A model generated the notes under the pieces. That model was not told where the DNA came from. It worked only from the letters and a program-made list of their open reading frames with translations, and searched no databases. DNA of 42,956 bases from a virus (Duplodnaviria; Heunggongvirae; Uroviricota; Caudoviricetes): the IMG/VR virus record IMGVR_UViG_2721755643_000001, one strand, 5' to 3'. This document shows, one piece after another, positions 3,826-20,195 of the stretch (positions are counted from its first letter, which is position 1; every line of letters begins with the position of its first letter). Both the position numbers and the translations under genes were made by a program.

Positions 3826-4014
3826 TCACGAGGACTGAAGTTTCTCGCAATTAAAATTTATCAGTTTTACTTTCTGCTCTCTGGAAACGCCTGCTTCTTT
3901 TTCCCCTGAGAGCATTTTTTCGCATTCTGATTTCGTTAGTTTTGTCTTTGAGTATCTTGTCCAGCTGGCAGGAGATCCACCTTCCTTTTCAATAGTGGCT
4001 GTAATTTTATACAT
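3826..4014 (-). CDS. Hypothetical small phage protein
   Basis: Track ORF 3826..4038; internal start at MYKITAT has a strong GGAGGTG Shine-Dalgarno 5 nt upstream. Confidence 0.5.
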   Translation of the reverse strand: MYKITATIEKEGGSPASWTRYSKTKLTKSECEKMLSGEKEAGVSREQKVKLINFNCEKLQSS

Positions 4015-8623: not shown

Positions 8624-8789
8624 GATGGCAGCCTCCGCGATGAATTTGATTAACTCACCACCGGAGGTAGCAATCTCATGGGTGGTGAGACGTACAGGGT
8701 TGCTACAACCGGTCATCACGGAACCCGGCCAGTCTTGCGACTGCCCCGCACGCCCCACCATAATTTGAATGTGGCTGTGCATTACGCAT

Positions 8790-8817
8790 AAAAAAACCGC
8801 CTGAGCGCGGTTATGCG
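8790..8817 (-). terminator. Rho-independent terminator-like hairpin upstream of the Rha gene
   Basis: Minus strand reads AACCGC-GCTCAG-GCGGTT followed by a T7 run; flanked by a CGCATA/TATGCG outer repeat. Confidence 0.55.
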
Positions 8818-8939
8818 CCGTGAATGACTTCGGGGTAGCAATCCCGGCACCCGTTTTATGAGGTGCAGGTGCACTATAATTCCACCCGTTCTGGTTTTCA
8901 ATAGCTACATTCAACATTTTCTCTTTCCTTTCATCACCG

Positions 8940-16632: not shown

Positions 16633-16917
16633 CCTGGTCTGAAGCATTCACAACGGTAGGAATCGCACTGGCGGTGGTGGTGTATTCGATTTGCCGCTGG
16701 GGATAAAAACGGTTTGCGGGAAAAGGAGAGTTAAGTAGAATTGCAGCGGGTGCTTGAGGCTATCTGTCTCAGGCATGAACACCAAAAGGCAGATAGAGAA
16801 AAGCCCCAGTTAACATTACGCGTCCGGCAAGACGCTTAACATTAATCTGAGGCTCAATCTATGAACGGCAAATCTAGGTTAGCCTCTTACGTGCCGAAAG
16901 GCAAGGAGAAGCAGGCT

Positions 16918-17073
16918 ATGAAGCAGCAAAAGGCGATGTTAGTCGCCCTGATCGTCATCTGTATTACCGTCATTGTGACGGCACTGGTAACGAGGAAAGA
17001 CCTCTGCGAGGTACGAATCCGAACCGGCCAGACGGAGGTCGCTGTCTTCACAGCTTACGAACCTGAGGAGTAA
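16918..17073 (+). CDS. Hok/Gef-family type I toxin
   Basis: 51 aa; MKQQKAMLVALIVICITVIVTALVTRKDLCEVRIRTGQTEVAVFTAYE parallels Hok (TM helix, conserved RK.LCE.R and EVA.F.AYE); AAGGAGA Shine-Dalgarno. Confidence 0.75.
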   Translation: MKQQKAMLVALIVICITVIVTALVTRKDLCEVRIRTGQTEVAVFTAYEPEE

Positions 17074-18137: not shown

Positions 18138-18676
18138 TTTACCCAACAAATACAGGCAAAAGCGGGGAACACCTTCGTCTCACCACGCTGGAAAGTGTCT
18201 GGATTCAGGGAAAACTGCGCATGTGGGGGCGCTGGTCGTATATTGGTGGCGGTAAGACGGGAAATATATTCAATCAGTTGCTGGCATCCCAAAAAATGAC
18301 AAAAACAGCCGTCAATGAAGCCCTGCGCAGGATGAAAAAAGCGGGAATAGAGAAACCTGAGCTGGAAGCGTTTTTGCGAGAGATGATCAATGGCAAGCAA
18401 AAGACCTGGCTGGCGCATTGTACTGATGCAGAGGCGTTATGTATTGATAGAGTCATAAGTGAGGTGCTGGCAGAGCATCCTGGATTGATTAGTGTCCTCC
18501 GGCAACGGTATAAAGGGCGGGGGATGAGTAAGCTGAAAATGGCACAACAGTTAAATAAGTATCGCCCTGGCTGGAGCTTGAAAACTTGCAGAAATCGCAT
18601 TGACGCATGGTTGGGTGTTGCTGAACACATTCTGTATATACCAATGAAATTAGCGTTATGCGGAGAAAGCCAATAA
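18134..18676 (+). CDS. Late-gene antiterminator Q-like protein
   Basis: 180 aa; LRMWGRW motif resembles the ERWGAWA motif of Q proteins; immediately upstream of a terminator, tRNAs and lysis genes. Confidence 0.65.
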   Translation: MIYPTNTGKSGEHLRLTTLESVWIQGKLRMWGRWSYIGGGKTGNIFNQLLASQKMTKTAVNEALRRMKKAGIEKPELEAFLREMINGKQKTWLAHCTDAEALCIDRVISEVLAEHPGLISVLRQRYKGRGMSKLKMAQQLNKYRPGWSLKTCRNRIDAWLGVAEHILYIPMKLALCGESQ

Positions 18677-18771
18677 AAAAGTTATTGCATTTTTGCCAAT
18701 AAACTGCTTCAATTCAGGTACGCTTCGCAAAGCTGTATCGCGAGGCGAACCAAGCGCATGAACTTTACCAG

Positions 18772-18795
18772 AACCCGCCATTGAGCGGGTTTTTT
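18772..18795 (+). terminator. tR'-like terminator downstream of the late promoter
   Basis: AACCCGC-CATTGA-GCGGGTT followed by TTTTTT, about 100 bp after the Q stop. Confidence 0.6.
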
Positions 18796-18883
18796 ATACC
18801 TGAAAAACGGCACAGGACGTTAAACGTGCTGGTGGTCAGATGAGTTTGCAGATGTGATGACATATGGTTATTATTCTGCCTCC

Positions 18884-18960
18884 GGCCCTTTAGCTCAGTT
18901 GGTCAGAGCGAGCGACTCATAATCGCCAGGTCGCTGGTTCAAGTCCAGCAAGGGCCACCA
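18884..18960 (+). tRNA. tRNA with CAT anticodon (Ile2-like, ileX/ileZ type)
   Basis: Cloverleaf with 7-bp acceptor GGCCCTT/AAGGGCC, anticodon loop CTCATAA, T-arm GCTGG-TTCAAGT-CCAGC, encoded CCA; close to my recollection of E. coli ileX. Confidence 0.8.
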
Positions 18961-18961
18961 A

Positions 18962-19038
18962 CCACCACTAGCTCATCCGGATAGAGCATCAACCTTCTAA
19001 GTTGACGGTGCGAGGTTCGAGTCCTCGGTGGTGGGCCA
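18962..19038 (+). tRNA. tRNA-Arg (anticodon TCT)
   Basis: Acceptor CCACCAC/GTGGTGG, D-arm GCTC...GAGC, anticodon stem TCAAC/GTTGA with loop CTTCTAA, T-arm CGAGG-TTCGAGT-CCTCG, encoded CCA. Confidence 0.85.
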
Positions 19039-19040
19039 GC

Positions 19041-19116
<76 letters not shown>

Positions 19117-19119
19117 TAT

Positions 19120-19191
<72 letters not shown>

Positions 19192-19399
19192 AAGTTAAAG
19201 TCTTTCAGTCTGCGATGATGGGAAAGCCCGGAGTGACTGAAAGACGTTTGCGTTTTGAATGCTCGTCTTTTTTGCAAAATTGCTGTGCAGAAATACCAAC
19301 CTTCGGGCAGGCGATCATTCATAAGCACTCTGCTTTTATTCCGATTAACTGTGGGTGGTTTGTTGGATAGAGTGCTTTCCTTACTGTAGATTCCGTTGC

Positions 19400-19422
19400 G
19401 CCCGCTTTTGCGGGCTTTTTTT
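19400..19422 (+). terminator. Rho-independent terminator just upstream of the holin gene
   Basis: GCCCGC-TTTT-GCGGGC followed by a T7 run. Confidence 0.75.
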
Positions 19423-19482
19423 CAAATCCTTTTCGTCTCTCAGTGTAAAGCTACGCCATCCGTTATTTGCGGAGGTGAGGTT

Positions 19483-19698
19483 ATGAAATCTATGGACAAA
19501 ATGTCAACGGGCATTGCCTACGGCACCTCCGCCGGCAGTGCCGGCTACTGGCTTTTACAGTGGCTTGATCAGGTCAGTCCGTCACAGTGGGCTGCGATTG
19601 GTGTGCTGGGAAGTCTGCTTCTGGGGCTTCTGACTTATCTGACGAATCTGTATTTCAAAATAAGAGAAGACAAGCGTAAGGCTGCGAGAGGTGAATAA
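19483..19698 (+). CDS. S: Class II holin (phage 21 S-type pinholin) with dual-start motif
   Basis: 71 aa, [71 protein letters not shown] matches S21; GGAGGTGAGG Shine-Dalgarno. Confidence 0.9.
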
Positions 19699-20195
19699 TG
19701 TCGCCATCATTACGCAAGGCTGTTGCAGTTGCTATTGGTGGCGGGGCTGTTGCTATAGCATCTGTGTTAATCACTGGCCCAGGTGGTAACGATGGTCTGG
19801 AAGGTGTCAGCTACATACCATACAAAGATATCATTGGTGTATGGACTGTATGTCACGGACACACCGGAAAAGACATCATGCCTGGTAAAACGTATACCGA
19901 AGCAGAATGCAAAGCTCTCCTGAATAAAGACCTTGCCACTGTCGCCAGACAAATTAACCCGTACATCAAAGTCGATATACCGGAAACAACGCGCGGCGCT
20001 CTTTACTCGTTCGTTTACAACGTGGGCGCTGGCAATTTCAGAACATCGACGCTTCTTCGCAAAATAAACCAGGGCGATATCAAAGGCGCATGTGACCAGC
20101 TACGTCGCTGGACATATGCTGGCGGTAAGCAATGGAAAGGGCTGATGACCCGTCGTGAGATTGAGCGTGAAGTCTGTTTGTGGGGGCAGCAATGA
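19698..20195 (+). CDS. R: SAR endolysin (lysozyme with N-terminal signal-anchor-release domain)
   Basis: Gly/Ala-rich weakly hydrophobic N-terminus ([23 protein letters not shown]) followed by a lysozyme-like domain; directly follows a pinholin. Confidence 0.85.

Follow-up and report, generated by a model that had tools for sequence, protein, structure and literature searches.

The inverted repeat that separates the tRNA array from the holin gene in a lambdoid prophage is a selected RNA structure, and it belongs to something considerably larger. In the window, the whole 42,956-nucleotide stretch of DNA analyzed here, this hairpin (H1) together with the long-range helix P2, the hairpins H3 and H4 and an intrinsic terminator constitutes one covarying RNA of about 230 nt that is read from the + strand. 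We hold with moderate confidence that H1 is the first stem of a processed, stable trailer RNA of the tRNA operon (19192–19422, +), which would act in trans after release by RNase P and RNase E, with H1 protecting the 5′ end and offering a kink-turn for a contact.

About one tenth of complete E. coli genomes carry the unit with this RNA; Shigella and phage HK639 have it too, and Salmonella Fels-1 has a decayed copy. None of the records inspected annotates the RNA part, and Rfam offers no match for it. The region between Q and the lysis genes, already rich in sRNAs, gains with it a well-supported structured RNA which, if it is cut out as proposed, would provide a second type of natural example for regulatory or stable RNAs obtained from tRNA operons.

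Structure and conservation of the H1 hairpin

The arms of H1 (GTCTTTCAGTC, 19200–19210, and GACTGAAAGAC, 19235–19245) form a lower stem of 11 bp around a 24-nt loop (19211–19234), precisely the perfect inverted repeat that the original prediction had read from the letters. In a repeat search the arms grow to 14 nt, with 93% complementarity (19197–19210/19235–19248). Above the lower stem U19211 is bulged, followed by a G.U and a C-G pair (19212–19213/19233–19234), an internal loop, and the apical stem GGG/CCC (19220–19222/19227–19229) with its variable loop (19223–19226); the whole hairpin has an energy of −22.3 kcal/mol. Within the 43-kb window no other perfect inverted repeat (loop 3–30) reaches 11 bp. 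Taken alone the repeat is not significant, since shuffled windows also yield such repeats: dinucleotide shuffles lead one to expect 0.26 per window, and 34 of 200 contained at least one. What establishes H1 is its conservation and covariation, not the repeat itself.

Of 5426 complete E. coli genomes, 525 contain the interval from the tRNAs to the holin gene (292 nt), with an identity of about 92%; four E. coli phages have it too, as does HK639 at 75% identity. The record of E. coli O121 (NZ_CP119441) is 100% identical over 19192–19483. H1 alone occurs at 577 places in 535 E. coli genomes, with a median of one per genome, and all sampled matches are chromosomal and lie beside or under a tRNA-Gly annotation. 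Such a pattern, at one type of locus, led us to reject a dispersed palindromic repeat of the REP/BIME, ERIC or MITE kind. In the GTDB set of species representatives, the loop motif of H1 is restricted to E. coli and Shigella flexneri, apart from one match in a Chloroflexi MAG that is probably a chance hit. Two-motif scans of IMG/VR located the element at more than 140 loci on more than 120 contigs.

Exact-motif scans delivered 41 distinct H1 variants, which fall into two clades that are about 25% diverged. RNA folding and covariation analysis, the check proposed along with the original prediction, bore the hairpin out: in the 41-variant alignment its 17 pairs are standard in 97.3% of cells, compared to 40–48% when the partners are slid, so that pairing is clearly kept in the relatives. 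Four pairs (12/55, 13/54, 16/51 and 18/49) change on both sides; pair 12/55, for example, is CG in 22 and UA in 15 variants, and pair 13/54 is UA in 23 and CG in 17. Most of this covariation separates the two major clades, and the number of independent events is therefore small. The strand can be told from the wobble pairs. When read from the + strand, H1 shows 108 G.U versus 6 A.C combinations (31 versus 6 without the two constitutive wobbles), and the remaining helices show 121 versus 8. This large excess of G.U over A.C places the RNA on the + strand; the opposite bias would be expected of a minus-strand RNA or a DNA palindrome.

The position of H1 is conserved as well. It starts 4–8 nt past a tRNA 3′ end in more than 110 loci: in 109 it begins 6 nt after the CCA of a tRNA-Gly, in one after a tRNA-Met/Ile2, while the tRNA-Gly that precedes it in HK639-type loci is a truncated remnant. 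The CCAGT spacer is nearly invariant across the 41 variants. At one IMG/VR locus (2861008536_000002, ~1929; L124) a deletion has removed the 5′ arm of H1 and fused the D and anticodon arms of the tRNA-Gly (…AATGGCTATTGTCTCAGCC) straight onto the H1 loop (TGCGATGATGGG…).

H1 also behaves as a separable module. In seven distinct variants the CCA of tRNA-Gly is joined directly to P2 without H1, and presence and absence differ by an indel of about 56 nt flanked by a CCAGT(T) direct repeat. Judged by these H1-less variants, H1 is dispensable for the trailer-RNA family. Conversely, H1 is accompanied by different downstream sequence in two loci (L126, L139) and in Fels-1, for which reason it may serve the tRNA instead of the trailer RNA. 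The Fels-1 element has a degenerate H1 and a truncated P2, which an inserted small CDS, STM0906.1n, sets apart. As to the origin of the module, a duplication of the 3′ half of tRNA-Gly was considered but found no support (Smith-Waterman against shuffles, p 0.06–0.14). An RNase P-type minihelix with a 3′ CCA was discarded, since no CCA follows H1.

The internal loop of the hairpin is essentially invariant and reads like the core of a kink-turn. The bulge GAU (19214–19216) is followed by G19217 and A19218 opposite A19232 and G19231, and these tandem G.A/A.G pairs are followed by U19219.G19230. The canonical helix next to the bulge has the Watson-Crick end C19213-G19233, which is CG in 40 of the 41 variants; the pair below it, above the 11-bp stem, is G.U in equally many. 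G28, A29 and A43 are invariant among all variants and G42 nearly so, whereas the apical loop varies freely (AAAG, AAAU, GUC, UUC, UUA, UUG and others). One variant (L101) reads CGAAGAA and two (L080 and L103) read CUGA, an exact D box; such rare variants appear to change only positions that a kink-turn tolerates. The G.A pairs are disrupted only in the decayed H1 copy of the Fels-1 type. Weak Rfam matches on H1 include two box C/D snoRNA models.

With its canonical helix, 3-nt bulge and tandem G.A/A.G pairs, the internal loop seems to fit the kink-turn consensus of the box C/D-like type. It resembles the kink-turns of box C/D RNAs and U4 snRNA, the sites of L7Ae, 15.5K and Snu13, in placing AUGAUGg opposite CgGA/CUGA, in its C=G-closed stem and 3-nt bulge that ends in U before the G.A/A.G pairs, in the U.G (U.U in two variants) and G-C pairs that come next, and in the non-canonical stem, which is short and capped by a small variable loop. 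Unlike the box C/D type it resides in an enterobacterial prophage and has neither guide sequences nor C′/D′ boxes. The kinked geometry and a protein partner of H1 would follow from this likeness of sequence. E. coli is not known to have an L7Ae-family protein, and a phmmer search of the six-frame ORFs of the window with approximate queries returned no L7Ae-like match. Should the kink-turn be real, one would have to ask which factor recognizes it in E. coli.

The body of the RNA and its operon

Downstream of H1 the RNA continues as a conserved, covarying fold (Table 1). RNAalifold on 21 representatives yields a consensus of 60 pairs, of which 10 are compensatory. P2, H3 and H4 together are 97.1% paired, versus 38–50% with slid partners, and contain 8 compensatory pairs. 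P2 itself (96.1% paired, 4 compensatory pairs) is a long-range helix that encloses H3 and a mini-hairpin, the latter being the weakest element of the RNA. In the window P2 carries two mismatches, C19262.U19315 and U19255.U19322, where nearly all relatives have Watson-Crick or G.U pairs.

Table 1. Features between the Q-like gene and the holin gene of the window, with the evidence for each
Feature	Position	Strand	Evidence
Q-like gene	ends 18676	+	
Intrinsic terminator, tR′-like	18770–18793	+	folding (−13.1 kcal/mol, z = −4.9); T6 behind the hairpin
Sigma-70 promoter of the tRNA operon	18846–18874	+	consensus scan
Four-tRNA array	18884–19191	+	ARAGORN; Rfam tRNA matches; PGAP annotation of the identical stretch
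tRNA-H1 spacer	19192–19199	+	(C)CA-GUU motif kept
H1	19200–19245	+	structure, covariation, conservation
P2, 5′ strand UUUUGAAUGCUCGUC	19253–19267	+	RNAalifold consensus
H3	19269–19293	+	RNAalifold; local fold is the minimum free energy structure
Mini-hairpin CC-UUCG-GG, within the P2 junction	19300–19307	+	92.9% paired
P2, 3′ strand AGGCGAUCAUUCAUAA	19309–19324	+	RNAalifold consensus
H4, long hairpin	19325–19375	+	folding, compensatory pairs, inverted repeat I2
Intrinsic terminator GCCCGCTTTTGCGGGC + T7	19400–19422	+	terminator scan, folding
Class II holin gene, first lysis gene	19484–19698	+	

H3 is formed by UUUUUGCA (19269–19276), that is the T run plus GCA, and UGCAGAAA (19286–19293) around the nearly invariant 9-nt loop AAAUUGCUG (19277–19285). 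Its cells are paired to 99.4%, with UA/UG/CG and GU/GC variation. The arms of H4 (19325–19332/19368–19375 and 19340–19350/19357–19367) make a hairpin of −20.7 kcal/mol (z = −4.35), in which three compensatory pairs turn CACUCU/AGAGUG into CAUCUC/GAGGUG and CACUCC/GGAGUG; its 3′ strand GGGUGGUUUGUUGG is G/U-rich and conserved. The strong terminator that had been noted behind the hairpins is indeed recovered, and other clades have non-homologous intrinsic terminators at the same position after H4, as annotated in HK639. Two open reading frames that overlap the RNA, one of 44 aa on the + strand (19255–19389) and one of 37 aa on the − strand (19205–19318), were discarded, as 1-nt indels among relatives break both frames.

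Upstream, the tRNA array has a promoter of its own, with a −35 TTGCAG, a 17-nt spacer, a −10 TATTAT and a GC-rich discriminator. Relatives keep TTGCAx, the 17-nt spacer and TATTAT or TATCAT at fixed spacing directly 5′ of the first tRNA, in about 60 loci and although the spacer and the upstream DNA are otherwise unrelated. The conservation of this sigma-70 promoter suggests that the array is expressed without dependence on pR′ and Q. A tR′-like terminator 3′ of the Q-like gene, with an equivalent arrangement in relatives, divides pR′ transcription from the tRNA unit. Promoter, tRNAs, structured RNA and terminator would hence make up one unit, a ‘moron’ that, by its sequence, can be expressed in the lysogen. 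This speaks against the original description of the site as a late-operon leader: the element lies in an autonomous unit, and in HK639 about 500 nt and two further terminators separate it from the lysis genes. For annotation, the tRNA array is to be viewed as a promoter-to-terminator ‘moron’ that is insulated from the holin gene, which is followed by those for lysozyme and Rz.

The tRNAs of the array are Ile2/Met-CAU, Arg-UCU, Thr-UGU and a degenerate glyT-like one read as Val-UAC, whose position is taken by tRNA-Gly-UCC in relatives. This fourth tRNA (19120–19193) has the anticodon loop CUUACAG compared to CUUCCAA in the glyT-like tRNA-Gly(UCC) of relatives, has lost one C from the 3′ acceptor strand and ends in CAA for CCA; it is probably a pseudogene. 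The degenerate form is confined to one IMG/VR locus (L097) and about 6–7 E. coli genomes. Given the broken tRNA and the two P2 mismatches, the copy of the unit in the window looks slightly decayed. The second tRNA (18962–19038) shows another kind of variation: its body is conserved among relatives (loci L003, L008, L018, L021, L087, L129 and others), yet its anticodon loop is hypervariable and often non-canonical. Its forms comprise Arg-UCU, Lys-UUU with C33, ‘Phe-AAA’, Leu-UAA, Leu-CAG and a UUA stop-reader, and in some loci loops of 5–6 nt that ARAGORN cannot name. Decay could explain this variability, and so could an arms race with anticodon nucleases.

Some observations concern the prophage as a whole. 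The O121 record NZ_CP119441 diverges from the window beyond ~20700: past the matching stretch it continues with DedA, IS911 and IS600 insertions and tail-gene remnants, and the window with apparently intact small-terminase-region genes, going by unsearched ORFs. The window, with its different downstream DNA, therefore stems from another prophage of this type, one that is more intact. Other RNAs matched by Rfam in the window are the RalA antitoxin RNA (3830–4008, +; 204 bits), the sok antisense RNA of hok/sok (16748–16923, +; 112 bits) and the C4 antisense RNA (8678–8765, −; 79 bits) with the adjoining IsrK (8790–8866, −; 65 bits).

The T run, rival readings and a proposed role

The original prediction also saw a second stem, which overlaps H1 and ends in a T6 run. 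The letters are there, namely GACG at 19242–19245, CGTC at 19264–19267 and T6 at 19268–19273, but the stem as a terminator-like alternative does not hold. A 4-bp pairing is trivially expected by chance. Extended to AAAGACG (19240–19246) with CGUCUUU (19264–19270), the stem reaches 7 bp (4 GC), encloses a loop of 18 nt and runs into the U tract; it has −5.6 kcal/mol, far from the energy of H1, and a pair probability of at most 0.4% in the full RNA. It is not the GC-rich hairpin with a short loop and a U tract directly after it that makes an intrinsic terminator, and the terminator scan returned nothing at this place. CGTC pairs with 19310–19313 inside P2, and the T run is the 5′ arm of H3 and not a transcript end, as which it should not be annotated. 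In the alignment stem 2 is paired to 76.7% in register and to 90.2% at slide +3. The two arms of H1 and the downstream GUCUUU/GCUUUU show a weak three-way covariation, and a minor alternative conformer with stem 2 may exist.

This bears on the suggestion of an attenuator, in which H1 would act as an anti-terminator and stem 2 with the U run as a conditional terminator or pause before the lysis genes. The GACG/CGTC pairing exists, the sequence that follows H1 varies along with its arms (GUCUUU in the clade of the window, GCUUUU in that of HK639), and in a local context of 91 nt a forced stem 2 is only 3.2 kcal/mol above the minimum. Nevertheless we regard an attenuator as highly improbable: stem 2 consumes half of the U run, H1 is stronger and forms first, and P2 and H3 claim the same nucleotides with better covariation (96–99% paired). 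In the commonest E. coli variant stem 2 is even interrupted midway by an A.C mismatch, the U run is kept in relatives that lack H1, and leader peptide and ligand-sensing domain are absent. A similarly poor case can be made for H1 as a site for RNase III, or another double-strand-specific nuclease, that parts the tRNAs from the lysis mRNA in a Q-dependent late transcript. H1 is in the path of that transcript, and its lower stem, asymmetric internal loop and upper stem superficially resemble T7 sites. RNase III favours roughly two helical turns, more than H1 offers with its interrupted 11+2+4 bp and an upper stem of 4 bp; moreover, a strong terminator, and in HK639 also sRNA genes, stand between H1 and the lysis genes.

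That H1 is a functionless relic, be it the scar of an indel or duplication at a tRNA 3′ end or a DNA palindrome such as a recombination site or a MITE/REP-like repeat, is hardly credible to us. Its presence/absence polymorphism with direct repeats of 4–6 nt at the boundaries, the deletion that joins a tRNA arm to the H1 loop and a faint likeness of H1 to the variable loop and T arm of tRNA-Gly do point this way. Compensatory changes and the G.U excess, however, speak for selection on a + strand RNA, the loop is invariant across the ~25% diverged sequences, the element is not dispersed and the similarity to tRNA-Gly stays below significance. A role in tRNA maturation, with H1 as a 3′ flank that sets the cut of RNase E or an exonuclease and insulates the fold of the last tRNA, is unlikely but deserves consideration. 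It would account for the close distance to the tRNA, Gly or Met/Ile2 alike, for the conserved CCAGU spacer and for the position being held in at least two loci with different downstream sequence. Against it, H1 pairs are maintained in HK639-type loci where the tRNA-Gly is truncated or gone, the tRNA-Gly of H1-less relatives is apparently normal, and a plain hairpin would be enough, which leaves the invariant 5x2 internal loop unexplained. A bolder idea, to which we give a slim chance, is that H1 might be a true C/D-type kink-turn in an enterobacterium without L7Ae. It would bring some protein of the host or the phage to structured RNAs that form a new family and ride on prophage tRNA operons. 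Since the anticodon loop of a neighbouring tRNA is hypervariable, the whole unit could then belong to a phage counter-measure against host defences that target tRNAs, and not be an ordinary base-pairing sRNA.

The trailer RNA remains our preferred reading, and of the roles first suggested for the site, small RNA and processing site were the right family of ideas; its processing, its stability and any function in trans are what we infer. In this scenario RNase P and RNase E would cut the primary transcript, freeing the tRNAs and leaving a stable RNA. RNase E prefers RN|WUU. As the spacer CCA-G|UU fits this preference, its cut is placed tentatively between G19194 and U19195. H1 would close the new 5′ end at once and shield the RNA from 5′-end-dependent decay, and its C/D-like kink-turn would bend the helix sharply, as a docking place for a protein or for a tertiary contact. 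In trans, the RNA body might then work as a prophage ‘moron’ sRNA. The terminator at 19400–19422 would hold constitutive transcription out of the holin gene, while during lytic growth a Q-modified polymerase would transcribe straight through the whole unit.

Comparison with known RNAs

A search of 19192–19483 against Rfam 15, with IsrK and the tRNA-like and leader families included, gave no family at the gathering threshold (best 18.9 bits versus a threshold of 70), and neither did the HK639 and Fels-1 copies of the element at gathering or permissive thresholds. The Rfam models of STnc100, AgvB, AsxR and Esr41 have no match to the element of the window. A resemblance to GcvB in the GU-rich strand, UUUGCAA and GUCUGCGAU was dropped when the GcvB model of Rfam did not match either. 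Full-text searches of the literature with three conserved sequence strings, and on phage tRNA trailers and kink-turns, found nothing relevant.

The interval between Q/pR′ and the lysis genes is known to harbour prophage ‘moron’ sRNAs such as STnc100/PasD, PasA/PasC, AgvB and AsxR (PMC4104026, PMC8550237, bioRxiv 10.64898/2026.05.13.724894). The trailer RNA shares their genomic niche and like each of them has its own terminator, but it is fused to a tRNA operon and not free-standing or convergent. An identity with PasA–D, AgvB or AsxR was rejected, as published positions differ and sequences are unmatched. In a blastn comparison of 18650–19700 with the PasA/PasD2 and PasB loci of E2348/69 the holin CDS alone aligned; PasC and PasD1 were compared through published fragments only. 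The PasA intergenic region of E2348/69, upstream of a homologous class II holin, has no similarity to the element. STnc100 (RF02076) itself is a neighbour of the element in the Q-to-lysis interval, with one copy in HK639 (L002, 2764–2969) and two full and one partial copies in Fels-1 (L155, 1901–2114, 2315–2437 and 3438–3656), which confirms that sRNA genes gather in this zone.

Individual parts of the RNA recall other systems. As in trp-type attenuators (1:2/2:3/3:4), a region 2, here the 3′ arm of H1, has both region 1 and region 3 as possible partners, and region 3 may instead bind a region 4, the 3′ arm of H3; unlike in those, there is no GC-rich stem followed by a U tract and no leader peptide, and the alternative conformer is energetically negligible. 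A stable hairpin a few nucleotides from a 5′ end blocks 5′-end-dependent attack by RNase E. H1 would sit at such a distance from a processed 5′ end, as does the hairpin of the ompA 5′ UTR, and may play the same role, although stabilizers of the ompA type need no conserved internal loop.

The 3′ETS-leuZ of the E. coli operon glyW-cysT-leuZ, one of several sRNAs that derive from spacers or trailers of tRNA operons, comes closer. Both RNAs lie between the last tRNA and the intrinsic terminator of the operon, and the trailer RNA does so on the same strand and under the operon’s promoter; both have a 3′ end at a Rho-independent terminator, and release by tRNA-processing nucleases would apply to both. 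The trailer RNA differs in its size, ~230 nt with five helices compared to roughly 50 nt, and in being prophage-borne and without sequence similarity, and its processing, Hfq binding and sponge role are putative only. Phage T4 offers a further parallel with its stable RNAs C and D (species 1 and 2), structured RNAs from the tRNA gene cluster that are co-transcribed with the tRNAs and processed out, and whose function is unknown. The trailer RNA, too, would be a structured phage RNA in the transcript of a tRNA cluster, with a presumed stability, but it belongs to a temperate lambdoid phage instead of the virulent T4, and no relationship in sequence or Rfam was detected. Trailers of the 3′ETS-leuZ type and the T4 stable RNAs C and D would appear to be its closest functional analogues.
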